30,878 nt of DNA from a virus (IMGVR_UViG_2534682158_000010:1-30878), one strand, 5' to 3'; shown: positions 14,670 to 30,878, numbered from the stretch's first letter. The notes: a model not told the origin generated them from the sequence alone. A program made the numbers and translations.

Positions 14670-14924
14670 TTATCGCCTTCGCCTGCGTGCCATATATTTG
14701 CGCACCGCGCGGCGTGGACAATCTGAAGCGGTTTCTTTCTGCTGCATCAATCTTGCAGCCATGCTCAAAAATGTCAGGCACAGTCGAAGCCCAGCATACA
14801 ATAGCGGTTCCAGTGGCCACGTCTCATTGAGCACATATACCGCCATGAAAATCGAGTCGAAAACTATCGCCGCCAGCGATAACTTCATTGTCGAAAGTCG
14901 GCGGAGCTGCCGGAGTTTATTCAT
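14670..14924 (-). CDS. Hypothetical small membrane protein (84 aa) overlapping the 3' end of lyz
   Basis: ATG overlaps the lyz stop by 8 nt; two hydrophobic segments and an Arg-rich C-terminus; could be a lysis accessory protein. Confidence 0.35.
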   Translation of the reverse strand: MNKLRQLRRLSTMKLSLAAIVFDSIFMAVYVLNETWPLEPLLYAGLRLCLTFLSMAARLMQQKETASDCPRRAVRKYMARRRRR

Positions 14925-15474
14925 TGACCAGTCCCGTCAGGCAAAGCTGGCGTTCTTTTTCACGGCGAATCTTTAAACCTCGCAGGGGCACGCCGTTACT
15001 GTTCACGAAATCAGGGAGATGGTTACACATATTCACCCATTCCCCTTTCTGCGCCCACTTGTGGATGGACGTTTCTACTCGCATGCCTCGCGCTTTGCTG
15101 TAGTAGGTCCGTAAGCTATTGCATCCCATATTGAATGCCGCGCTTGTCATTGCACTGAAGGCATTATCGGGCATGTCTTTGCCCCGGAAGTGCTGATTAA
15201 TACAGCGTTCAGCGATCAGGATATTCTTTTCCCAATCAGCGGCGATTTGCTGGTCGTTTTTTCGCACACCCGGCGTTACCCCGTGTGTATTACCGATCCC
15301 GTCAGTCCATACCCCCGCCGGGCACATGTATGGATCACGTCGGCAACCTTCAGCGTTACCAATCAGCTCAAGCCCCGCCTGGTTGGTTCGCACATTGCCA
15401 TTACCCATCACGATGGTAATCATCACCGCGATAGCGCAAATTGCACCGCCTCCTGCGGCTGTTTTTCCCTTCAT
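14917..15474 (-). CDS. lyz: Lyz, SAR-type endolysin (T4-lysozyme family)
   Basis: Start at MKGKTAAGGGAICAIAVMITIVMGNG (signal-anchor-release domain) with GAGG SD; catalytic E...C...T region; the six-frame ORF start 15516 rejected. Confidence 0.92.
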   Translation of the reverse strand: MKGKTAAGGGAICAIAVMITIVMGNGNVRTNQAGLELIGNAEGCRRDPYMCPAGVWTDGIGNTHGVTPGVRKNDQQIAADWEKNILIAERCINQHFRGKDMPDNAFSAMTSAAFNMGCNSLRTYYSKARGMRVETSIHKWAQKGEWVNMCNHLPDFVNSNGVPLRGLKIRREKERQLCLTGLVNE

Positions 15475-15562
15475 AAAGACCTCATAAGCGAATTTTTTAC
15501 GCTCCAGGACAAACACTCATTCACAGCCAATACCGACTGACTCGATCCCTTTAGAAGGCACA

Positions 15563-15586
15563 GGATAATGCAAATCACTTGTTAGC
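15563..15586 (-). promoter_or_regulatory. Late-promoter-like element (AACAAGTGATT plus TATCCT) on the minus strand upstream of lyz
   Basis: Reverse complement of 15573-15586 gives GCTAACAAGTGATT, followed 5 nt later by TATCCT; same architecture as at mat-like and prt. Confidence 0.4.
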
Positions 15587-15607
15587 TACGTTTCAAAGAT
15601 ATACATT

Positions 15608-15624
15608 ATTGCTCTAATTAATTT
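15608..15624 (+). promoter_or_regulatory. C1 operator-like 17-mer ATTGCTCTAATTAATTT upstream of ssb
   Basis: 16/17 match to ATTGCTCTAATAAATTT; 20 nt upstream of the ssb GTG start. Confidence 0.55.
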
Positions 15625-15643
15625 ATTTTATTAGGTAAGATAA

Positions 15644-16132
15644 GTGGCACAACGCGGTGTAAACAAAGTCATCCTGATTGGTACCCTGGGGCAAGACCCG
15701 GAGATCAGGTATATACCAAATGGCGGAGCGGTCGGAAGACTCAGCATCGCAACGAATGAATCATGGCGCGACAAGCAAACGGGCCTACAGAAAGAGCAAA
15801 CAGAATGGCATAAAGTCGTTTTGTTCGGAAAACTTGCTGAAATTGCGAGTGAGTATTTACGAAAAGGTTCTCAGGTCTACATCGAAGGGAAACTTAAAAC
15901 CCGTAAGTGGACAGATGACGCCGGTGTAGAACGTTACACGACGGAAATTATCGTCAGCCAGGGCGGCACCATGCAAATGATCGGCGCTCGCCGTGACGAT
16001 TCACAGTCCTCAAATGGCTGGGGGCAATCAAACCAACCTCAAAACCACCAGCAATACAGTGGTGGCGGTAAACCTCAGAGCAACGCCAATAACGAACCTC
16101 CAATGGACTTTGACGACGATATTCCGTTTTGA
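15644..16132 (+). CDS. ssb: Single-stranded DNA-binding protein
   Basis: OB-fold region nearly identical to E. coli SSB ([16 protein letters not shown]...[15 protein letters not shown]...); acidic tail DFDDDIPF; GTG start. Confidence 0.95.
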
Positions 16133-16329
16133 ATGTGTAAAAAACGACTGAAAGAAAAGCGGTGGTCCAGACGCCGACAAAAGCACGAACTCGCAAACAA
16201 ACGCCAAAGTTGGCAATGGCACACGCTTTTCACGAAAAGAACACCCCGAGATATTGCGTTCGCTGGTGGGAAAACATTCCTGACCCACCTGAAGGCGCAA
16301 TACATCAGGTTTTAAGCAGAGGAAAGACT

Positions 16330-17007
16330 ATGAATAACATGACAACGAAAGAGCTTTTGACGGCACTTCCAAAATACAAAAGCCATAAAACAGTTCGCGC
16401 CTCAAAAATCAAAGATATCGAAATTATCGCCCTAATGGATGTGGTCCTTTTTTGCAACATCGAAGTCGTTGAGCCAGAAGGGGTAAAAGTCCATGTTGAT
16501 AAAATATTTTTGCAAAAACACCGACCAGAAATTGGCGGATATCTGGTCGCTTATGAGGACGGATCTCTGTCCTATTCACCAGAAAAAACATTTGAAGAAG
16601 GCTTTAGTCGGACTAACGACTTCTTCGAAAATGGGGTATCGCTCAGCATTGAAGGTCACAATGGGGTGACATTCATTACAGCCAGGGACGTAACTATTTC
16701 TGCTGGCGGTATCGCTACTCTACAAGAAGAAATCGACCTTGAAGCAGCCGACTTTTCTGACGCGCTGATGTGGCTGAAGGATGGCAAGAAAGTTGCTCGA
16801 CGCGGGTGGAACGGCGAAAACCAATTCTGCTGGCTGGTTCCTGAAGGACAGTACCCGGCACGAATGGAAGCCATTAAGGGATATTTCCCCGGCGACCTCG
16901 TTCCGTATGGTGCTTATTTCGCCTTAAAAAATGCACAAGGTGTAGTTGTTCCGTGGGTTCCTTCTGTAGGCGACTTACTGGCATGTGACTGGTTTGTAGT
17001 GGAGTGA
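16330..17007 (+). CDS. Hypothetical protein (225 aa) with a C-terminal DUF2829-like domain
   Basis: ATG 16330 with GAGGAAAG SD; C-terminal LMWLKDGKKVARRGWNGENQF...VPWVPSVGDLLACDWFVVE resembles the DUF2829 pattern from memory. Confidence 0.6.
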   Translation: MNNMTTKELLTALPKYKSHKTVRASKIKDIEIIALMDVVLFCNIEVVEPEGVKVHVDKIFLQKHRPEIGGYLVAYEDGSLSYSPEKTFEEGFSRTNDFFENGVSLSIEGHNGVTFITARDVTISAGGIATLQEEIDLEAADFSDALMWLKDGKKVARRGWNGENQFCWLVPEGQYPARMEAIKGYFPGDLVPYGAYFALKNAQGVVVPWVPSVGDLLACDWFVVE

Positions 17008-17013
17008 TTTAAC

Positions 17014-17796
17014 GTGGAAAATACTAAAGCAATTCAATACCGCCTGCGTAATGGCCAGAGTGTCGAAGTGACCATCAATAATGATGGAGTACCTGGCGAA
17101 AAGGTTTCTATCTCTGATCTGGCTATCGAAAAAACCATCATGTGCCACCTTGGCTTTACTGAAGAAGTGAGCAAAAAGCATGGTGTAGCAATCTGGAGCG
17201 CAATGGATACTGGTATGCGCAAATTCATTACTGCTCGTACCCCAGGGATGACCATGATGGACCTCATGCAGATTGCGCCGCTGTTTGAATGTGAGCCTTT
17301 AGATGTATTCAGCAATCCAGCTATCTGCCAGCAGTTATATGGTGAGATGAAACTCGCGGTTACCCCCATTGTGCTGCATGAAGGATCGCTTGCTGGCGTG
17401 TGGAAAGTGGAGCGTATTTCAAGCTACATGCCTTTCCATGTCAACGGCGTAATCACTGGTGAAAATCAACCTGTTTCCGTTATAAAGTCAGACCTCAAGC
17501 GCGCAATTCTTGAAGCAAGTTGTCGAGTTGTCGGCCTGGGCAAACAGTCTTATGTTTCCTTCCCGGCTGGCCCTGAAGGCCCGGCAGAAATTCTGATTAT
17601 GGATGCCGATCTGCTCTGGCAAATACAGTTTCTGATTGGCAAAAGCATCATCCGCGCTGAAGAACTCGATCAGTACATTACCTGCACGATGACGGATGAA
17701 GTCAAAAGTGTGGCTATAGCCAATGCCCGGAACCTATGTCGTGCTGCATTAACAGAACTGCAAGAAAACACCACGGAAGAAGTGGAAAGCGATTAA
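17014..17796 (+). CDS. Hypothetical protein (260 aa)
   Basis: GTG start with GGAG SD at 9 nt; begins 6 nt after the upstream gene stop; no recognisable motif. Confidence 0.55.
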   Translation: MENTKAIQYRLRNGQSVEVTINNDGVPGEKVSISDLAIEKTIMCHLGFTEEVSKKHGVAIWSAMDTGMRKFITARTPGMTMMDLMQIAPLFECEPLDVFSNPAICQQLYGEMKLAVTPIVLHEGSLAGVWKVERISSYMPFHVNGVITGENQPVSVIKSDLKRAILEASCRVVGLGKQSYVSFPAGPEGPAEILIMDADLLWQIQFLIGKSIIRAEELDQYITCTMTDEVKSVAIANARNLCRAALTELQENTTEEVESD

Positions 17797-17827
17797 AAAA
17801 AATCCCGCCGATTGGCGGGATTTCTTC
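17797..17827. terminator. Bidirectional intrinsic terminator between convergent genes
   Basis: A6 - AATCCCGCC-GATTG-GGCGGGATT - TTTCTTC; U tracts follow the hairpin on both strands. Confidence 0.7.
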
Positions 17828-18137
17828 AATATACGATCTGGTCTACATGATCACCAAAATCATCGTCGTCGTCGTCCTCATCGCCACCATCTACTGCTGG
17901 CCAATCAACAAACCAGCCAGCGTAAAGATGCAGCGTTCGGAGAACATCACTTGCGGGAGCATCAAGGGTGTTAACGAATCCCATATAGCTATTGGGATTT
18001 GCCCCAGCTATGGCTTCAGCGATCATGTCCTCGGTAATGTCACCGGAGATAATGCTTAAACGCCCGGAAACTTCTTCATTATCATCAAATTCGATAATGG
18101 CATCTCCGCCTAATGGCGCTGCGATTTTAATCTGCAT
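17826..18137 (-). CDS. Small highly acidic protein (103 aa) ending the darA operon
   Basis: AAAGGAG SD at 8 nt; start overlaps the ddrB stop; about 23 Asp/Glu including DGGDEDDDDDDFGD. Confidence 0.7.
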   Translation of the reverse strand: MQIKIAAPLGGDAIIEFDDNEEVSGRLSIISGDITEDMIAEAIAGANPNSYMGFVNTLDAPASDVLRTLHLYAGWFVDWPAVDGGDEDDDDDDFGDHVDQIVY

Positions 18138-21114
18138 TATTTAGCTCCTTTGCCACACCTAATAACAGTTCCAGCAATCCGTCACCATTCATCAGTGATG
18201 CGGCAGCGGCCTCTTTGTCATGATACAACTGAAGAGCCATAGAGAATACTTCCGTTGCTGACGTTTTGGAAATAGTCGGTGATTTCTGCCGAATTTTCCC
18301 GGTGTTACTTACTGAGGCTGGCGGGTATACCTTCGCCATATAAATATTACTCAATCGAGATCTGAAGCACCATTCAGGCTTGCCACGCCCACCGATATTA
18401 ACGAAAGATGGCTTATCCCCTTCAACATTGGCCTTCAGGAATGACCGGGCTTTCTCTAACAAACCAGGGTTACTGTACTCAAGATGATGACCCAGCTCGT
18501 GCCACAGTGCACTTGCATTTTCATCGTTCAAATTGACAGCAACAACACCATTAATATTTGCATATGCCCTTCCCTGGTGGTGAACCACCTTTGATAAGGT
18601 CGAAATTTTACCGCCGGTCAGGCGATAAATATCAGCAAGTTCCTTGCGCAGGTCTATCCCACCATTCTGTCCAGCGCGGGCTTCTTCCACTTCTTCCGTG
18701 ATAAAAGAGTCGGCCCACTCAAGAGCTTTTTCTTCAGATACGGATGAGTTGGCGATCGCACTGTTCATGGCAGATAACACTTTCTCGTGGACCGAACCCA
18801 TACTTTGCTGATTCATTTGCCAGCGTGTCTGCGGGTTATATGAGAATCGCTTAAGTAGTTGGTCAAGATGCTCAAGTTCTTCTTCGCTGACATACTTTTT
18901 AGCCTCACCAATAATGCCGGGGAGAATATTGCCGTTAGGATTAAACGCTCGCGAAAGGAAGAGTTTCAGCGCCCCCATGCCCTCCGATGCTTCAATATCA
19001 CCAATAACACGGTTAACAATGGCCGCACTCTTCGGATTAGCATCCGCCAACGCTCTGGCTACGATTTGCAGGGACGATACGACCTCACGCTGCATATCAG
19101 TCCTGATCTCATCAATAAACTCTGGCGTTATGCCGTGCTCTTTAAGGATATCCCTGCCTTCCGCCGTTACCCCATCGATATCACCGACATGTTTATTAAC
19201 CTGACTTTGCAATGCCTTAAATGCCCTCAGAATTCCACGGGCATCATCAGCTTTACTAACGGCCTTCCTGAATGCTGGCAAGAAGTCAGAGTTAACCTCA
19301 TTTTGTTGATCGGCCCACTGAATGGAGGCTTCTTTCATCTCGTCCAGAGTCAAATCACCCAACGCGGTATGGTCTGTGAATATGAGCGACAACCTCTGAA
19401 CCATTTCTGCCAATGGTGATGCCGAATGCGCCGCGCTAAGGAATGCTTTCACCCTGGTTGGGCGAATGGAAAACCAGTCAATAGCTGGTGGCATATCTCC
19501 GTTTTTTATCGCCTGCGCTATCTCGTCAAAGCCATCGCGCCCAAGGGAGGATGCGTGATTTAACAAGCCGCGAAGTAACGAATTGCTGATACCGAATAAT
19601 CGGCACCATTTTTTCACGTCGGCAACAGGCATTCGAACAAAATGCGCAAGCACTTGTACAAGCTGTTCATCCTGGGGATCTGTACGGGAAAGCAGCCTGA
19701 TCAGATGAATAATGTCTTTGATGCCGGATGCCCGATGTAATAGCAAACTGGTATATGGAGCAACACCATTGTAACTACCGCCGGAAACGGACTCGAAAAG
19801 ACCGCCGGATATCCCTTGCATGCCTTCGTTTTCCAGTTCCTGAGACACCTGGCGAAGGATATCCTGTAACGACACATCACCACCGCCAAACATATCCCCC
19901 AGCGCCTGGCCCTGGTGCTGTAACTCATCATTGATACGTTGAGCCATCAACTTAAAGGCGGAGGCCATACGCTTCGCGCTACGGTTATTCGCGACGATGA
20001 ACAACGCGAGTGCTTTCACTTCCGGGGCCGTTTCGCTGAACATATCCCCCTGAGCAATAACATCGGTAATATGCTGGCCTGACTCCTTCGATTGCCTTAC
20101 CAGGTCTACCGCATCTTTCAATGCCGCCAGCGCCTTTTTATCGAGGCTATCCGCTGTCTCAATGCCATCAACAATAGTTGTCACAGCCTGCTTGTGCGCT
20201 TCTCCTGATAAAGCCTGCATCTGGACAAAATCATTGGCTGCCGCATTAAGCGCCGTCAGAACATTACGCATGTCCGGATCAGGTTCTTCTGCAACCATCC
20301 TTACCAGGCGCGCATCCTTATATGCCTTGGCAAAGATCGCGTTTTGTATACGGTCTACAAGTTGCCGTGTTGGTCGCCCATCTTCAGTTACAAGGCCAGC
20401 CGCCTGTGTGGCACCAACTTGCGTCATAAATCCGCGAATAAACGCGTCATTACTGCGGCTAAGCAGATCTCCGCTTTCTGACGGGTTAAAAAGCGCCATC
20501 ATCGCCGGTGTTATGCTGTCGGCATCAACAAAAGCCTTTTCACTGGCTGCCATTTCCTGAAGATCAGAAATATTTGAGTCCTTGGCAAACTGAACGCGGT
20601 CAACCTTGGTTAACCGGCGGCGCACCAGTACCGGAGCCGTCATTGATTCAACCTTTTCAGGTCGTATGCCGAATTCGGTCGCATGATCAATCAGGTACTC
20701 ACGATACCGATCCGCATTGCCGTCCTGATAGGCTTTGATGATCCCCATGGTCCGTCCATTACCTGACTCAACGGCATTGTCCTCACCAATTATCGGCGCA
20801 CCATGGCTGGATAAACCGGAATCAGTAAGCTGAGCAGGCCGCAAATCTTTGGATATCTGGTTAACCTGAAGAAGGCTGGATGCGCGGGTCCGGTCGCGCG
20901 GCTGAAGTTCCTGGGGATAGTCAGGATTAATTTTCCCATCCAGAGTATTGGATACCAAAAGAGCTGAGGCATCGACGATATCAAACGCTGTTTTTACCTC
21001 GTCTCCCTTCGCTGTCACCACATACGAAACCCGCCCATAACCGGGCAGGTTCTTTAGCAGCTCGATCAGCGTTTCTATGCTGGTGGCCATTACCACCTGA
21101 TCGCTTAAGCTCAT
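18127..21114 (-). CDS. ddrB: DdrB-like large Dar-operon protein (995 aa)
   Basis: Position downstream of darA and ddrA in the same strand; assignment by operon synteny with P1, not by motif. Confidence 0.75.
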   Translation of the reverse strand: MSLSDQVVMATSIETLIELLKNLPGYGRVSYVVTAKGDEVKTAFDIVDASALLVSNTLDGKINPDYPQELQPRDRTRASSLLQVNQISKDLRPAQLTDSGLSSHGAPIIGEDNAVESGNGRTMGIIKAYQDGNADRYREYLIDHATEFGIRPEKVESMTAPVLVRRRLTKVDRVQFAKDSNISDLQEMAASEKAFVDADSITPAMMALFNPSESGDLLSRSNDAFIRGFMTQVGATQAAGLVTEDGRPTRQLVDRIQNAIFAKAYKDARLVRMVAEEPDPDMRNVLTALNAAANDFVQMQALSGEAHKQAVTTIVDGIETADSLDKKALAALKDAVDLVRQSKESGQHITDVIAQGDMFSETAPEVKALALFIVANNRSAKRMASAFKLMAQRINDELQHQGQALGDMFGGGDVSLQDILRQVSQELENEGMQGISGGLFESVSGGSYNGVAPYTSLLLHRASGIKDIIHLIRLLSRTDPQDEQLVQVLAHFVRMPVADVKKWCRLFGISNSLLRGLLNHASSLGRDGFDEIAQAIKNGDMPPAIDWFSIRPTRVKAFLSAAHSASPLAEMVQRLSLIFTDHTALGDLTLDEMKEASIQWADQQNEVNSDFLPAFRKAVSKADDARGILRAFKALQSQVNKHVGDIDGVTAEGRDILKEHGITPEFIDEIRTDMQREVVSSLQIVARALADANPKSAAIVNRVIGDIEASEGMGALKLFLSRAFNPNGNILPGIIGEAKKYVSEEELEHLDQLLKRFSYNPQTRWQMNQQSMGSVHEKVLSAMNSAIANSSVSEEKALEWADSFITEEVEEARAGQNGGIDLRKELADIYRLTGGKISTLSKVVHHQGRAYANINGVVAVNLNDENASALWHELGHHLEYSNPGLLEKARSFLKANVEGDKPSFVNIGGRGKPEWCFRSRLSNIYMAKVYPPASVSNTGKIRQKSPTISKTSATEVFSMALQLYHDKEAAAASLMNGDGLLELLLGVAKELNNAD

Positions 21115-25541: not shown

Positions 25542-26114
25542 TTACAGCTCAGATTGAGTTTGGCGCTTCTCTACAGGATGATAACGATAAATCGTCGATA
25601 CACCGATATCGTAAATAATTGCCAACTGTTTCCTGCTGTAGCCATTTTCGATCAACCTCGCTATTTGCTCATGTTGTTCTTTTGTCAACTTCGGGCGACG
25701 TCCGCCAATGCGTCCCTGTTCGCGTGCAGCTGCCAGTCCGGCCAGTGTTCTCTCAACAATTAATTCACGTTCCATTTCTGCTAAAGCACCCATGACATGA
25801 AAAAAGAAACGCCCCATGGGTGTTGATGTGTCAATACTGTCTGTCAGACTACGGAAATTAACACCTTTTTCCCGCAACTCCTCTATAAGCGTGATAAGGT
25901 GTTTCATACTTCTGCCAAGCCTATCCAGCTTCCAGACAACCAGCGTATCTCCTTCTGATAACGTTCTGAGCAGCTTTTTCAAGCCTGGTCTGGCTGACTT
26001 TGTTCCGCTTATTTTATCTTCAAAAATCAGTTCACATCCTGCGCAGTTCAGTGCATTTCTTTGTAAATCTGTGTTTTGGTCATTTGTTGACACACGAATG
26101 TAGCCAATTTGCAT
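25542..26114 (-). CDS. Gin/Cin/Min-family serine DNA invertase
   Basis: 190 aa from ATG 26114 (AGAGG SD); catalytic motif IGYIRVSTNDQ, conserved core VVWKLDRLGRSMKHL...SLTDSIDTSTPMGRFFFHVMGALAEMERELIVERT, C-terminal HTH. Confidence 0.93.
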   Translation of the reverse strand: MQIGYIRVSTNDQNTDLQRNALNCAGCELIFEDKISGTKSARPGLKKLLRTLSEGDTLVVWKLDRLGRSMKHLITLIEELREKGVNFRSLTDSIDTSTPMGRFFFHVMGALAEMERELIVERTLAGLAAAREQGRIGGRRPKLTKEQHEQIARLIENGYSRKQLAIIYDIGVSTIYRYHPVEKRQTQSEL

Positions 26115-26168
26115 GAAAAACAACCTCTTTGTTTAGTTAAAAATACATCGTTGGTATAGGTAGGGATT

Positions 26169-26194
26169 AAGACTAAAACGTTGGTTTGGGGGAA
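26169..26194 (+). other. Invertase crossover site s1 (26 bp), at the 5' end of cassette B'
   Basis: AAGACTAAAACG-TT-GGTTTGGGGGAA; fits the Gin-family 12-2-12 architecture. Confidence 0.7.
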
Positions 26195-26653
26195 GGCTCA
26201 GCATTGCCCGTTGGCGTGCCCGTTCCGTGGCCCTTAGAAACACCACCAACGGGCTGGCTGAAATGCAATGGTGCAGCATTTTCTTCTGAAAAGTATCCAA
26301 ATCTGGCAAAGGTTTACCCCACCAATAAATTGCCGGATTTACGCGGTGAGTTTATTCGCGGCTGGGATGATGGGCGGGGGATTGACTCTGGCCGTAATTT
26401 ATTATCTGCACAGAATGATGCAATTCAGAATATTGTTGGTTCTTTCGGGCGTACTCAGCTTTTTAGAGATGTACTTAGTTCAGGGCCATTTAGTCAACAT
26501 GGTCAAGTATTATCTACAGGCCTAAAGGAAACGGAAATTATTGAGGGTTATGGCGCTTATAACTGGACATTCGACGCCTCTCGCTCAGTTCGTACAGCAT
26601 CTGAAACCCGCCCACGCAACATTGCGTTTAATTACATCGTAAGGGCAGCATGA
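26186..26653 (+). CDS. Silent tail-fibre C-terminal cassette B' (tail-collar domain)
   Basis: No genuine start (in-frame with the crossover site); conserved N-terminal GEGSALPVGVPVPWP...LPDLRGEFIRGWDDGRG and C-terminal RPRNIAFNYIVRAA. Confidence 0.75.
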   Translation: MGEGSALPVGVPVPWPLETPPTGWLKCNGAAFSSEKYPNLAKVYPTNKLPDLRGEFIRGWDDGRGIDSGRNLLSAQNDAIQNIVGSFGRTQLFRDVLSSGPFSQHGQVLSTGLKETEIIEGYGAYNWTFDASRSVRTASETRPRNIAFNYIVRAA

Positions 26654-26672
26654 AAACGTTGGTTTGGGGGAA
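26647..26672 (+). other. Invertase crossover site s2
   Basis: AGCATGAAAACG-TT-GGTTTGGGGGAA; spans the stop codon of cassette B'. Confidence 0.7.
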
Positions 26673-27167
26673 GGCTCGGCGCTGCCCGTTGGCGTGCCTG
26701 TTCCATGGCCCTCAGCCACACCGCCAACGGGGTGGCTGAAATGTAACGGAGCAGCATTTTCTTCTGAAAAGTACCCAAATCTGGCAAAGGTTTACCCAAC
26801 GTTAAAATTACCTGATTTACGCGGTGAGTTTATCCGTGGTTGGGATGATTCGAGAGGGATTGATACAGGGCGTTCATTGCTAAGTGGTCAGACTGCAACA
26901 TTTATTCGTACAGCTTTGCAGGATTATTACGGTGTCGATCTGACTACTAATGTCAAAGTAGGTATCGCTTATGCTACTGCTGATTCTGTTATAACTGTTG
27001 GAAACCCTGCTAATCCTAAAGCAGGAGATAATAGCGATTATGTTCCAGCATCAGCAGATAACTCCATAACAGGCACTCAAAGGACGGCAGAGGATAATTT
27101 TACCGGGGCATGGATATCAATGCGCCCCCGCAACGTTGCTTTTAATTACATTGTAAGGGCCACATAA
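26664..27167 (+). CDS. Silent tail-fibre C-terminal cassette E
   Basis: Same conserved ends, unique central region (QTATFIRTALQDYYGVDLTTNVKVGIAYATADS...). Confidence 0.75.
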   Translation: MGEGSALPVGVPVPWPSATPPTGWLKCNGAAFSSEKYPNLAKVYPTLKLPDLRGEFIRGWDDSRGIDTGRSLLSGQTATFIRTALQDYYGVDLTTNVKVGIAYATADSVITVGNPANPKAGDNSDYVPASADNSITGTQRTAEDNFTGAWISMRPRNVAFNYIVRAT

Positions 27168-27186
27168 AAACGTTGGTTTAGGGGAA
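27161..27186 (+). other. Invertase crossover site s3
   Basis: CACATAAAAACG-TT-GGTTTAGGGGAA. Confidence 0.7.
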
Positions 27187-27207
27187 GGCTCGGCGCTGCC
27201 CGTTGGC

Positions 27208-27675
27208 GTGCCTGTTCCATGGCCCTCAGCCACACCTCCAACGGGGTGGCTGAAATGCAATGGTGCAGCATTTTCTTCTGAAAAGTACCCAAATCTGGCA
27301 AAGGTTTACCCAACGTTAAAATTACCTGATTTACGCGGTGAGTTTATCCGTGGTTGGGATGATGGGCGAGGGATTGACTCTGGTCGCTCTATTTTAAGCG
27401 AGCAAGGATATGCAACGGAGGATCATGCTCACGGATTACCGTCAAAATCAACCGTAGCAACTGACCGCTCAATTAATTTCTACTTTGACGAGGCATGGGC
27501 TACTAGTGGTAATACGGGAGTTATCAGATGGGGGAACACAAGCGATGCAGGATTGCCAGCCCCTAATTATGGAACTTTTAAAACATATAAACAGTCCGTA
27601 GCTAATTTAGGTACTGCTGGCTTAGAAACCCGCCCTCGTAATGTTGCATTTAATTATATTGTGAGGGCGGATTAA
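27208..27675 (+). CDS. Silent tail-fibre C-terminal cassette D
   Basis: Open frame actually begins at the crossover site near 27175; unique central region (GYATEDHAHGLPSKSTVATDRSINFYFDEAW...). Confidence 0.75.
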   Translation: MPVPWPSATPPTGWLKCNGAAFSSEKYPNLAKVYPTLKLPDLRGEFIRGWDDGRGIDSGRSILSEQGYATEDHAHGLPSKSTVATDRSINFYFDEAWATSGNTGVIRWGNTSDAGLPAPNYGTFKTYKQSVANLGTAGLETRPRNVAFNYIVRAD

Positions 27676-27680
27676 TTATA

Positions 27681-28292
27681 TCAACTGGCTGTAGAAAGTT
27701 GTTTTTCAGGCCAGTTGAGATCTGGTGCCGTGGTTAAATCCATCGCGTTCAGCTCGTCTATATAATCTAGCACGGAGTTAAGCTGTGTGGTTTCTGCCTG
27801 CGTCAACTTCCGTCCAGCCTGTAATTTCAACTGAATCAGACTAATGGAAGCCATCGCAGTATCAATCAATGACTGACGTTTTGTTTCTGCTGCCTCTACA
27901 GCTGCACTATGTTGAGCCTCAGTATCAACCACCCATTTCTCTCCATCCCATTTGTCGTATGGTGTTAGCGGGGCGATAGTGGTTGTATTTTCCGGATAGT
28001 CACCCAACACCGTGATTTCTTCGGGATTCCCAGTGTCAATGCTATAGACAGTTTCGCCACGATGATCTGGCACATACTCCCATGAACTTAAATCCTCTGA
28101 ACGGAGAATCGCATAACCTGCTTTATGTGAGCCTGGAGCATCCAAACAAGAATTTGCCGGAATACCAACGCCAACAGCAAGATATTCAGTTGATGCAGAA
28201 ATATATTCCCGATTACCACCATCATAGTTATAAACGATAATGTTTCCTGCCTGTATGGCTATAAGTTCGCTATTTAATATCGCATTATCCAT
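27681..28292 (-). CDS. Tail fibre assembly protein (Tfa / U-like chaperone)
   Basis: 203 aa; C-terminal region LIDTAMASISLIQLKLQAGRKLTQAETTQLNSVLDYIDELNAMDLT typical of Tfa proteins; start overlaps cassette C stop (TAATG). Confidence 0.85.
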   Translation of the reverse strand: MDNAILNSELIAIQAGNIIVYNYDGGNREYISASTEYLAVGVGIPANSCLDAPGSHKAGYAILRSEDLSSWEYVPDHRGETVYSIDTGNPEEITVLGDYPENTTTIAPLTPYDKWDGEKWVVDTEAQHSAAVEAAETKRQSLIDTAMASISLIQLKLQAGRKLTQAETTQLNSVLDYIDELNAMDLTTAPDLNWPEKQLSTAS

Positions 28293-28750
28293 TATGCTGC
28301 TCTCACAATATAATTGAAGGCAATGTTACGTGGGCGGGTTTCATTCCCCCCAGATAACTCCGTTCTGTATTGACTGGTAAATTTACCATTAATCGCTCCT
28401 TCTTGGACGGCGTTATCTGTCGACAACAGACTATCCCCCCCTCTGTCATTTGGCACCAATACCGTGTTATCCCACGCGTCCCATGACCGAATATTATGAT
28501 AATGACTTCCTGTTAACCACCCCTGTATGCTTAAGATGCCCCTTCCCGCATCCACACCTCGCCCATCATCCCAACCACGGATAAACTCACCGCGTAAATC
28601 AGGTAATTTTAACGTTGGGTAAACCTTTGCCAGATTTGGGTACTTTTCAGAAGAAAATGCTGCTCCGTTACATTTCAGCCACCCCGTTGGTGGTGTGGCT
28701 GAGGGCCACGGAACAGGCACGCCAACGGGCAGTGCCGAGCCTTCCCCCAA
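28292..28750 (-). CDS. Silent tail-fibre C-terminal cassette C, translationally coupled to Tfa
   Basis: Conserved ends; unique centre (GWLTGSHYHNIRSWDAWDNTVLVPNDRGG...). Confidence 0.75.
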   Translation of the reverse strand: MGEGSALPVGVPVPWPSATPPTGWLKCNGAAFSSEKYPNLAKVYPTLKLPDLRGEFIRGWDDGRGVDAGRGILSIQGWLTGSHYHNIRSWDAWDNTVLVPNDRGGDSLLSTDNAVQEGAINGKFTSQYRTELSGGNETRPRNIAFNYIVRAA

Positions 28751-28767
28751 ACCAACGTTTTCATGCT
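28742..28767 (-). other. Invertase crossover site s4
   Basis: Plus strand reads TTCCCCCAAACC-AA-CGTTTTCATGCT. Confidence 0.7.
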
Positions 28768-29267
28768 GCCCTTACGATGTAATTAAACGCAATGTTGCGT
28801 GGGCGGTTTTCGTTTGCAGTTGGAACAATTTTTGAAGCATCAAGGCCAATCACTTTTGGGTAAACAGCGCCGTCTGTCCTTTCTGTCACCATACTTCTGA
28901 CTAAGGAAAAATAACTATTGTTTGTTGAGGGAGTTAAAGGCACCACTGCCCCCTTAAACGAGCCTACTGATTCCCATATTGAATAATTTTCAGTATTTAC
29001 AGTCTTGAACTCACCATAGATATTACGTATGGCATCACCTTGAGCGGATAATATTGTTCTCCCCGCATCCACACCACGTCCGTCATCCCAGCCGCGAATA
29101 AACTCACCGCGTAAATCCGGTAATTTATTGGTGGGATAAGCCTTTGCCAGTTCTGGGTATTCTTCAGCAGAAAAAGCTGCTCCGTTGCATTTTAGCCAGC
29201 CTGTTGGCGGAGTGGCTGAGGGCCATGGAACAGGTACGCCAACAGGCAATGCTGAGCCTTCCCCCAA
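28761..29267 (-). CDS. Silent tail-fibre C-terminal cassette A' (near-identical copy of A)
   Basis: 168 aa; differs from cassette 29756..30262 at 2 residues. Confidence 0.75.
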   Translation of the reverse strand: MGEGSALPVGVPVPWPSATPPTGWLKCNGAAFSAEEYPELAKAYPTNKLPDLRGEFIRGWDDGRGVDAGRTILSAQGDAIRNIYGEFKTVNTENYSIWESVGSFKGAVVPLTPSTNNSYFSLVRSMVTERTDGAVYPKVIGLDASKIVPTANENRPRNIAFNYIVRAA

Positions 29268-29284
29268 ACCAACGTTTTCATGCT
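29259..29284 (-). other. Invertase crossover site s5
   Basis: TTCCCCCAAACC-AA-CGTTTTCATGCT. Confidence 0.7.
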
Positions 29285-29745
29285 GCCCTTACGATGTAAT
29301 TAAACGCAATGTTATGGGGGCGTGTTTCAGATGCTGTGCGAACTGAGCGAGAGGCGTCGAATGTCCATACAGAAGCACCATATCCTTCAATGATCTCAGT
29401 TGGTTGTAAGCCTACTGATAATATAGAGTCAGTTTGACTAAATGGTCCTGAATTAAGCGCATCTTTAAAAAGCTGAGTACGCCCAAAAGTGCCAACTATA
29501 TTCTGAATAGCGTCAGACTGTGCAGACAGTAGGTTGCGCCCATTATCAACGCCCCGTCCGTCATCCCAGCCGCGAATAAATTCGCCCCGTAAATCCGGTA
29601 ATTTATTGGTGGGGTAGGCCTTTGCCAGATTGGGGTACATTTCAGAAGAAAATGCTGCACCGTTACATTTCAGCCACCCCGTTGGCGGCGTGGCTGAGGG
29701 CCATGGAACGGGCACACCAACGGGCAGTGCAGAGCCTTCCCCCAA
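29278..29745 (-). CDS. Silent tail-fibre C-terminal cassette B
   Basis: 155 aa; divergent paralogue of B' (26186..26653); C-terminal motif carries H in place of R (ETRPHNIAFNYIVRAA). Confidence 0.75.
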   Translation of the reverse strand: MGEGSALPVGVPVPWPSATPPTGWLKCNGAAFSSEMYPNLAKAYPTNKLPDLRGEFIRGWDDGRGVDNGRNLLSAQSDAIQNIVGTFGRTQLFKDALNSGPFSQTDSILSVGLQPTEIIEGYGASVWTFDASRSVRTASETRPHNIAFNYIVRAA

Positions 29746-29762
29746 ACCAACGTTTTCATGCT
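29737..29762 (-). other. Invertase crossover site s6
   Basis: TTCCCCCAAACC-AA-CGTTTTCATGCT. Confidence 0.7.
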
Positions 29763-30262
29763 GCCCTTACGATGTAATTAAACGCAATGTTGCGTGGGCG
29801 GTTTTCGTTTGCAGTTGGAACAATTTTTGAAGCATCAAGGCCAATCACTTTTGGGTAAACAGCGCCGTCTGTCCTTTCTGTCACCATACTTCTGACTAAG
29901 GAAAAATAACTATTGTTTGTTGAGGGATTTAAAGGCACCACTGCCCCCTTAAACGAGCCTACTGATTCCCATATTGAATAATTTTCAGTATTTACAGTCT
30001 TGAACTCACCATAGATATTACGTATGGCATCACCTTGAGCGGATAATATTGTTCTCCCCGCATCCACACCACGTCCGTCATCCCAGCCGCGAATAAACTC
30101 ACCGCGTAAATCCGGTAATTTATCGGTGGGATAAGCCTTTGCCAGTTCTGGGTATTCTTCAGCAGAAAAAGCTGCTCCGTTGCATTTTAGCCAGCCTGTT
30201 GGCGGAGTGGCTGAGGGCCACGGAACAGGTACGCCAACAGGCAATGCTGAGCCTTCCCCCAA
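29756..30262 (-). CDS. Silent tail-fibre C-terminal cassette A
   Basis: 168 aa; conserved ends, unique centre (GDAIRNIYGEFKTVNTENYSIWESVGSFKG...). Confidence 0.75.
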   Translation of the reverse strand: MGEGSALPVGVPVPWPSATPPTGWLKCNGAAFSAEEYPELAKAYPTDKLPDLRGEFIRGWDDGRGVDAGRTILSAQGDAIRNIYGEFKTVNTENYSIWESVGSFKGAVVPLNPSTNNSYFSLVRSMVTERTDGAVYPKVIGLDASKIVPTANENRPRNIAFNYIVRAA

Positions 30263-30279
30263 ACCAACGTTTTCATGCT
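30254..30279 (-). other. Invertase crossover site s7
   Basis: TTCCCCCAAACC-AA-CGTTTTCATGCT. Confidence 0.7.
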
Positions 30280-30878
30280 GCCCTTACGATGTAATTAAAT
30301 GCGATATTTCGCGGCCTGACAGCAACAAAATTTATACCATCACCTACAGAGTTACTGGTGAAATTAAATCGTGAAAATCCTGGCTGATTTCCGACGATGC
30401 CATCATGAAAATTAATTGCGTGCCCCGCACCATCACCTATATTTCCGGCACGCTGAGAAAAGTTTGTAGCCTCTTGGCTGCTTAATAATGCTCGCCCATT
30501 GTCCACACCTCGTCCATCATCCCAACCTCGAATAAATTCGCCCCGTAGATCCGGCAATTTATTGGTGGGGTAAACCTTTGCCAGATTTGGGTACTTTTCA
30601 GAAGAAAATGCTGCTCCGTTACATTTCAGCCACCCCGTTGGCGGTGTGGCTGAGGGCCACGGAACAGGCACACCAACGGGCAGCGCCGAGCCTTCTCCTA
30701 AACCAAGGTAATCAAGAACGCTCTGAATACTGGTCTTACCAAGAATGGCGCGTCCAACACTTGTCAATGCAGTTAACGCGGCACGATCAACACCTGTGAA
30801 ATAAGGGAGTTTATCTGCTGCTGTAGCTAGTGCCGCTAGGGCAGTGAGCGTAGCGTCTGCCGCTTGCTTTCCATTAGC
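30273..30878 (-). CDS. Tail fibre protein S, 3' portion: constant part fused to the currently expressed cassette F (5' end beyond the window)
   Basis: Frame is open from the window edge (ANGKQAADATLTALAALATAADKLPYFTGVDRAALTALTSVGRAILGKTSIQSVLDYLGLGEGSALP...) through cassette F; the TTG at 30767 is not a real start. Confidence 0.85.
   Translation of the reverse strand, partial: ANGKQAADATLTALAALATAADKLPYFTGVDRAALTALTSVGRAILGKTSIQSVLDYLGLGEGSALPVGVPVPWPSATPPTGWLKCNGAAFSSEKYPNLAKVYPTNKLPDLRGEFIRGWDDGRGVDNGRALLSSQEATNFSQRAGNIGDGAGHAINFHDGIVGNQPGFSRFNFTSNSVGDGINFVAVRPRNIAFNYIVRAA
30693..30718 (-). other. Invertase crossover site s8 at the junction of the S constant part and cassette F
   Basis: TTCTCCTAAACC-AA-GGTAATCAAGAA; the best-palindromic of the eight sites. 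Confidence 0.7.

Follow-up and report, generated by a model that had tools for sequence, protein, structure and literature searches.

The window analysed here (IMGVR_UViG_2534682158_000010:1-30878, the whole stretch of 30,878 nucleotides) belongs to a P1-like (Punavirus) phage-plasmid, in which the ssb gene is followed by an open reading frame of 225 amino acids (aa), ORF1 (16330-17007, plus strand), composed of an N-terminal OB-fold domain, a linker and a C-terminal Tad2 (DUF2829) domain. ORF1 is probably an accessory anti-defence sponge of P1-like phage-plasmids. An earlier note on this DNA had placed two genes, of 225 and 260 aa, between ssb and a bidirectional terminator, and both reading frames and the terminator hairpin are indeed present. 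It had considered both genes to be unrecognised, but the second is the isaA gene of P1 (94% aa identity); ORF1 is absent from P1, and canonical P1 contains only isaA of the two. The description of the pair as a two-gene module is borne out by D6-like elements, which hold the same ORF1-isaA pair at another locus.

The C-terminal Tad2 domain

The Tad2 sponge domain comprises residues 137-225 of ORF1 (16738-17004, plus strand). The likeness to DUF2829 that the earlier note had suggested for this region is confirmed by a highly significant match to the Pfam profile PF11195 (E=1.6e-22; 80.2 bits, the cut-off being 25), extending over ORF1 residues 141-224 and profile positions 2-73 of 73, as well as by phmmer matches to the sequences of solved Tad2 proteins in the PDB (ModTad2, 9eib, 6e-20, and 8v3e, ~1e-20; HgmTad2/AcrIIA7, 8kbi, 1e-11; SPO1 Tad2, 8sme, 1e-9). 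In a fold search the domain likewise resembles the solved Tad2 structures, with helix α1 and an antiparallel sheet. On this sequence evidence, ORF1 can be regarded as a bona fide Tad2-family member of unusual architecture.

The closest solved relative is ModTad2 from a Myroides odoratus prophage (PDB 9EIB, 8V3E), which has the same DUF2829 fold, displays ~46-50% identity to ORF1 over 88 residues, carries a β2-β3 insert of equal length and shares the conserved GWNG and W-x-P-S-V-x-D motifs. However, ModTad2 is a stand-alone protein of 89 aa, whereas ORF1 has a 136-residue N-terminal extension formed by the OB domain and the linker, and ligand binding, known for ModTad2, is predicted for ORF1. 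ModTad2 sequesters histidine-ADP-ribose (His-ADPR), associated with type II Thoeris, and uses another pocket to sequester cyclic UMP and cyclic CMP (cUMP and cCMP), associated with Pycsar (10.1101/2024.01.03.573942; 10.1101/2025.08.24.671296). According to the legend of Fig. S2A of the latter study, phage P1 is the reporter for plating on E. coli Pycsar (cCMP) with and without Tad2 homologs (10.1101/2025.08.24.671296).

SPO1 Tad2 (8SME-8SMG) and HgmTad2/AcrIIA7 (8KBI-8KBM) belong to the same family and have the same residues as ORF1 in the pocket for glycocyclic ADP-ribose (gcADPR), but are only ~35-40% identical to it, and the long cyclic-dinucleotide-binding insertion of HgmTad2 is absent from ORF1. 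ADP-ribose is held by W25, N26, W73, S76 and D79 in SPO1 Tad2 and by W21, N22, G23, W87, S90 and D93 in HgmTad2 (10.1101/2023.05.01.538930; 10.1101/2023.11.15.567273). The pocket residues W160, N161, G162, W209, S212 and D215 are kept in ORF1, while the position of T78 (SPO1 Tad2) and T92 (HgmTad2) is occupied by G214, a Ser in ModTad2; by the measure used for a pocket binding ADP-ribose-derived signals, five of six positions are conserved.

Exchange of the Tad2 block with D6-like elements

In D6-like plasmids the order dut-ORF1-isaA-like is found near cre, i.e. the same pair at another genomic site. A block of 334 nt in the window (16723-17056, plus strand), made up of ORF1 codons 132-225, the 6-nt spacer and the first 14 isaA codons, shows one mismatch (17044) in a mismatch map against a D6-like plasmid (L014), and its flanks are densely substituted. 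Between the window and this plasmid dS is 0 for the Tad2 domain, for which dN/dS is not defined, ~0.6 for the OB domain (dN/dS 0.41-0.48) and ~0.7 for the linker (dN/dS 0.51-0.52), and the IsaA bodies of the P1-like window and the D6 lineages are only 48% identical. Because the block is near-identical while its flanks, the OB domain and the IsaA body have diverged, the Tad2 domain must recently have been exchanged as a recombination cassette with its left breakpoint at the domain boundary. A block of such domain precision shows that sponge domains are swapped between phage lineages as cassettes. In phage D6 itself, orf114 (L004 2594-3034) is the same gene as ORF1 but has lost residues 21-99, the core of the OB domain, by a clean in-frame deletion; its first 20 residues and the linker remain, as does a Tad2 domain identical to that of the window.

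Comparison with canonical P1

BLAST against P1 aligns the window in three collinear pieces, 15600-16333 at 98.9% identity, 17018-17796 (isaA) at 93.9% and 17828 onward (hxr), so that canonical P1 lacks exactly window positions 16334-17017, the body of ORF1. The P1 record contains isaA-IS1-isaB in this slot, in agreement with the small genes and insertion sequence (IS) element that the earlier note had placed there; IS1 and isaB are missing from the window. In a three-way alignment, a block of ~24 nt, TAAGCAGAGRAAAGACTATGA, precedes ORF1 in the window and also, downstream of dut, in D6, but precedes isaA in P1, and a second common block of ~40 nt corresponds to the first codons of isaA. Since the ~24-nt block precedes ORF1 in the other two elements, the ribosome-binding site (RBS) and ATG used by P1 isaA belong with ORF1 elsewhere, and we infer that P1 is a deletion derivative lacking ORF1. 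The annotation of P1 IsaA as a protein of 320 aa is, by the same comparison, probably over-extended: in NC_005856 (L001 2063-3025) it is read from an upstream GTG, adding a 56-codon extension that corresponds to window 16162-16329, and the alignment indicates that the real start of P1 isaA would be the ATG at L001 2231, giving ~264 aa.

P1-like phage-plasmids have eight hypervariable regions, of which isaA-IS1-isaB is one (PMC9603915); it was designated RD-2 in a study in which an ORF of pTZ20_1P is said to interrupt isaA (PMC6906374). In P7 the slot after ssb (L003 5267-6382) holds an nmpC porin gene, and in RCS47 (FO818745) an IS-family transposase interrupts the Tad2-like gene.

Gene start, expression and prevalence of ORF1

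The open frame of ORF1 ends at 17007 and may be read from a GTG at 16162 or from the ATG at 16330, which yields 225 aa. The latter is best read as the start, because a GAGG Shine-Dalgarno sequence lies 7 nt 5' of it, because database entries (PGAP-style; cluster P0001, 453 member sequences) give ORF1 as 225 aa, because in D6-like plasmids the same ATG is located only 14 nt past dut, with no space for a 56-codon GTG extension, and because the alignment of the N-domain family begins in agreement with it. The 281-aa GTG form annotated in Salmonella phage SJ46 looks over-extended.

Upstream of ssb lies a promoter region with the C1 repressor operator Ossb/Op21 (15579-15643, plus strand; ATTGCTCTAATTAATTT at 15608-15624), annotated in P1; window 15560-15660 is 100% identical to P1, whose record annotates the ssb promoter/operator there. 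The spacer between ssb and ORF1 (197 nt; 16133-16329, plus strand) is conserved, with 98.9% identity to P1, and its final ~21 nt (16309-16329) form the RBS block that is common to D6-like elements and P1 isaA in the three-way alignment; neither a plus-strand terminator nor an Rfam match was found in this spacer. On the basis of the ssb promoter/operator identical to P1 Op21, together with the absence of a predicted plus-strand terminator between ssb and ORF1, ssb-ORF1-isaA is likely to be a C1-repressed operon with early expression.

At least 80% of the ssb-ORF1-isaA query (ssb to terminator) is covered by 106 of the 620 matching plasmids in PLSDB, and 213 of 5426 complete E. coli genomes contain ORF1, nearly always plasmid-borne and annotated 'DUF2829 domain-containing protein'; about 4% of complete E. 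coli genomes carry it on P1-like phage-plasmids.

The N-terminal OB-fold domain

The 135 N-terminal residues, described in the earlier note as unassigned, contain a domain of an identifiable OB-fold family (residues ~8-97), for which no Pfam model exists. The domain, which is Dec-like and belongs to the family of the RyR-Tad N-domain, spans ORF1 residues 8-97 (16351-16620, plus strand), and residues 10-97 are modelled as a small five-stranded β-barrel/sheet at a predicted local distance difference test (pLDDT) score of ~90. The linker that follows (residues 98-136; 16621-16737, plus strand) is modelled at pLDDT <50 and is retained in D6 orf114, which aligns from residue 100.

An exhaustive HMMER search with the OB domain found 2493 cluster representatives at E<=1e-3, and a profile search of the family at least 7201 clusters at 90% identity, all 'hypothetical', none with a Pfam domain and mostly 84-100 aa long; about half of the family are stand-alone proteins of ~90 aa. 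The family motif, LPxYxxHKxVxAxKI ... KHxPxxGGYxVxYxDGYxSxSPxxAFExGY, is present in ORF1, and the near-invariant residues include H19, K20, H64, P66, G69, G70, Y71, Y75, D77, G78, Y79, S81, S83, P84, F88, E89, G91 and Y92. The window copy retains 21 of the 23 near-invariant positions, the changes being Y79S and Y92F. Only one 2026 preprint has so far touched on the family, and that briefly (10.64898/2026.06.04.730250).

Among 146 scanned members of the family, the only recurrent Pfam fusion partners are Tad2 (seven), PF21825 (seven), PF13876 (five) and the Acb2/Tad1 hairpin (one), and one triple fusion of OB, Acb4 and Sequestin was found; counting gp68 (RyR Tad), the domain is seen fused to five sponge families. 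PF21825 is Sequestin, discovered through its fusion to sponges, and PF13876 is Acb4 (10.1101/2025.07.12.664507). Metagenomic examples are P0189, P0109, P0071 and P0138, in which the OB domain is fused to Acb4 and Sequestin, to Acb4, to Sequestin and, weakly, to the Acb2/Tad1 hairpin, respectively. Several further C-terminal partners that recur match nothing in Pfam (the P0072/P0150/P0180 and P0073/P0138 clusters); these might be additional sponge-like modules. In P0075, a protein of 2604 aa rich in bacterial Ig-like domains, eight separate stretches match residues 51-101 of the OB-domain query, its C-terminal half, reflecting either true homology or a repeated β-hairpin motif. The neighbourhoods of three stand-alone OB genes on metagenomic phage contigs contain small hypothetical genes only, with no known anti-defence neighbours.

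A related arrangement is found in RyR Tad (gp68 of Pectobacterium phage vB_PatP_CB1), which has a homologous N-domain (local hmmsearch 7e-12; hhalign 96%, E=1.5e-9) and, like ORF1, an N-terminal β-domain followed by a sponge domain; it also sits in an accessory hot spot that holds a phage single-strand DNA-binding protein (SSB) gene (10.64898/2026.06.04.730250). In contrast to ORF1, the C-terminal sponge of gp68 is a RyR Repeat12-like helical domain rather than Tad2, and its N-domain is shorter and has no central hairpin. In the crystal, the gp68 N-domain forms a β1-swapped dimer and contributes to dimerization (10.64898/2026.06.04.730250). Small phage domains are shuffled in a similarly modular way in the sponge-sponge fusions Acb4-Tad2 of phage Pm86, in which Tad2 has a partner as in ORF1, and Acb4-Sequestin of Ab09/YH6 (10.1101/2025.07.12.664507), although both halves are sponges there, whereas the OB partner in ORF1 is not a demonstrated sponge.

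Other identities for the N-domain were considered and rejected. Lockin, Acb5 and TadIV-1 gave no such matches in the PDB and their published descriptions are unlike an OB fold (10.1101/2025.07.12.664507; PMC13243611); Lockin is, moreover, reported to be absent from INPHARED phages, where the N-domain is common. A 2H-phosphoesterase, which the pair of conserved His residues might suggest, was dismissed because direct reading shows the HxT/S motifs to be absent.

Proposed function of ORF1

As an anti-defence sponge, ORF1 would most likely assemble through its Tad2 domain into the usual Tad2 homotetramer and soak up a TIR-made, ADP-ribose-derived alarm signal, so that the host effector would never be activated. 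The best guess for this signal, by analogy with ModTad2, is His-ADPR of type II Thoeris, possibly together with the cyclic pyrimidine mononucleotides of Pycsar. Since the gene lies downstream of ssb and its C1-repressed promoter, with no terminator between, it would stay off in the plasmid prophage and come on at once upon infection or induction, when a sponge would be needed. The OB domain would be either an oligomerization element or a second anti-defence module; isaA travels with ORF1. The nucleotide-identical Tad2 block in lineages with diverged flanks counts in favour of this proposal, as a sign of selection.

A number of observations weigh against it. The sponge function of ORF1 is a prediction from homology, and the adenine-contacting T78/T92 is replaced by Gly, for which reason the ligand preference cannot be read from the sequence. 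Confidence in the modelled Tad2 domain is no more than moderate (pLDDT 39-80; insert loop <50), and co-transcription of ssb and ORF1 is deduced solely from the absence of predicted signals. The OB domain, under relaxed constraint between lineages (dN/dS ~0.4-0.5) and lost from phage D6 by an in-frame deletion, may be dispensable. Finally, the N-domain of gp68 alone is inactive against type I Thoeris (10.64898/2026.06.04.730250).

This last result and the β1-swapped dimer of the RyR-Tad domain agree with the view that the OB domain is a mere dimerization or scaffolding module, which stabilizes or cross-links sponge oligomers and has no target of its own. The ~40-residue low-confidence linker that ties it to Tad2, and the persistence of the Tad2 part without it in D6, point in the same direction; a pure scaffold, however, should neither be so common as a stand-alone protein of 90 aa nor keep invariant His, Lys, Asp and Ser residues, and this explanation is put forward tentatively, as a real possibility that falls short of probable.

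The frequency of stand-alone members, which implies an autonomous function, instead suits a second explanation, by which the OB domain has a ligand or target of its own, as a new sponge or another anti-defence module, and ORF1 blocks two immune pathways. The Pfam-recognisable recurrent partners of the domain are almost exclusively sponge families, and its invariant residues are polar or aromatic (H19, K20, H64, Y71, Y75, D77, S81, S83 and E89). Dec, the capsid-binding relative, lacks these residues, which points to a separate ligand site. Blocking of two pathways has been demonstrated for the Acb4-Tad2 and Acb4-Sequestin fusions, and the same guilt-by-fusion logic led to Sequestin, in a Pfam-based fusion search that missed the OB family because it has no Pfam model (10.1101/2025.07.12.664507). 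Nevertheless, the inactivity of the gp68 N-domain against type I Thoeris, the changes at near-invariant positions (the two in the window copy and five in the D6-like copy), the loss of the domain in D6 and the uninformative gene neighbourhoods of stand-alone members make this explanation somewhat unlikely. Its boldest form is doubtful, namely that the domain is the founding example of a very large unrecognised phage anti-defence family (at least 7,200 clusters at 90% identity) and acts on a ligand of its own as a new sponge or signal-modifying module, that ORF1 is an inhibitor with two warheads and that IsaA is possibly a third component.

It is most improbable that the OB domain is a Dec-like capsid-decoration module and ORF1 virion-associated. 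The closest solved fold is indeed that of the decoration protein Dec of phage L (PDB 6E3C), with which the KPEVGGYL and AFE..Y motifs are shared, one family member, in phage Dolphis, is annotated 'capsid decoration protein', and P1 packages anti-restriction proteins encoded nearby (darB, ddrB). Dec differs, however, in its trimeric C-terminal β-helix spike and capsid binding and in lacking the invariant H/K/H/Y/D/S residues of the OB family; ORF1 has no trimerizing spike, so that only the OB fold is common to the two, and it lies in the early C1-controlled ssb operon rather than among structural genes in a late morphogenesis operon. Sponges, moreover, act stoichiometrically inside the cell. 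E. coli is not known to have type II CRISPR-Cas, which counts against a further alternative. This is that the DUF2829 domain, through its homology to AcrIIA7/HgmTad2 (8kbi, 9kzr), is an anti-CRISPR and not a signal sponge, and it can be set aside, as the anti-Cas9 activity of HgmTad2 proved irreproducible and HgmTad2 is a sponge for gcADPR and the cyclic dinucleotide cGG (10.1101/2023.11.15.567273).

Canonical P1, a workhorse of phage-defence assays, emerges as a natural deletion variant without ORF1, and the comparison of P1 with ORF1 carriers would provide an isogenic test of the effect of a Tad2-type sponge in a temperate phage-plasmid. The role of the OB domain, as a new sponge or an oligomerization device, would, once defined, fill a gap in the catalogue of phage counter-defence.

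IsaA

The second gene, ORF2 (17014-17796, plus strand), encodes 260 aa from a GTG start and is isaA: the protein is 94.3% identical to P1 IsaA (YP_006486) over 259 residues, from residue 2 on (93.9% at the nucleotide level), and occupies the same position upstream of hxr. The GTG lies 6 nt past the ORF1 stop and a GGAG is found inside the end of ORF1, an arrangement that suggests that isaA is translationally coupled to ORF1. IsaA (PHROG 2326) is 48% identical to D6 orf113, and its homologs are confined to P1- and D6-like elements. With a dN/dS of 0.12 relative to P1, it is a constrained protein, and isaA and isaB are non-essential in P1 (PMC10695390).

No match to IsaA was found in Pfam, NCBIfam or PADLOC, nor in the PDB by sequence or profile. 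Its AlphaFold model is of low quality (mean pLDDT 47.6; confident for residues 40-105 only) and a Foldseek search with it gave nothing below E=0.4; the guess of an Xre-type helix-turn-helix is backed by no tool.

Genomic setting and neighbouring genes

The ssb-to-hxr segment (15600-18200) shares 99.4% identity with SJ46, and one E. coli plasmid matches window 15644-17826 at 100%. The gene ssb (15644-16132, plus strand) encodes a single-strand DNA-binding protein of 162 aa (PF00436, E=3.2e-39), a homolog of P1 ssb. On its other side lies lyz (14917-15516, minus strand), coding for the endolysin, which read from GTG has 199 aa; P1 lyz has 558 nt (185 aa) and SJ46 lys 645 nt, the choice of start codon differing among the three records.

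Between isaA and hxr, a bidirectional intrinsic terminator (~17797-17827) was read directly from the sequence as the hairpin ATCCCGCC-GATT-GGCGGGAT, which lies between an A-run and a T-rich stretch. An Rfam scan of 15400-18300 gave sub-threshold matches only, the weak leader matches being due to this hairpin, and a promoter scan was empty but uninformative, since it missed even the known P1 ssb promoters. The convergent hxr (17826-18137, minus strand) encodes an Xre-like putative repressor (P1 annotation; PHROG 2292) and is followed by ddrB (18127-21114), the two being convergent genes of the Dar anti-restriction region. ORF1, IsaA, Hxr and IsaB had no match in NCBIfam or PADLOC, and the reading of these proteins as a defence system is unsupported.

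Farther along the window, the region 25542-30767 begins with a serine invertase of the Cin/Min type (25542-26123, minus strand). Eight short ORFs of 152-168 aa come after it, three on the plus and five on the minus strand; all have a Phage Tail Collar domain, and a tail-fibre assembly gene (27681-28292) lies among them. Together, the invertase and the Tail Collar ORFs resemble a multiple-inversion array of tail-fibre cassettes that greatly exceeds the C-segment of P1 in size.

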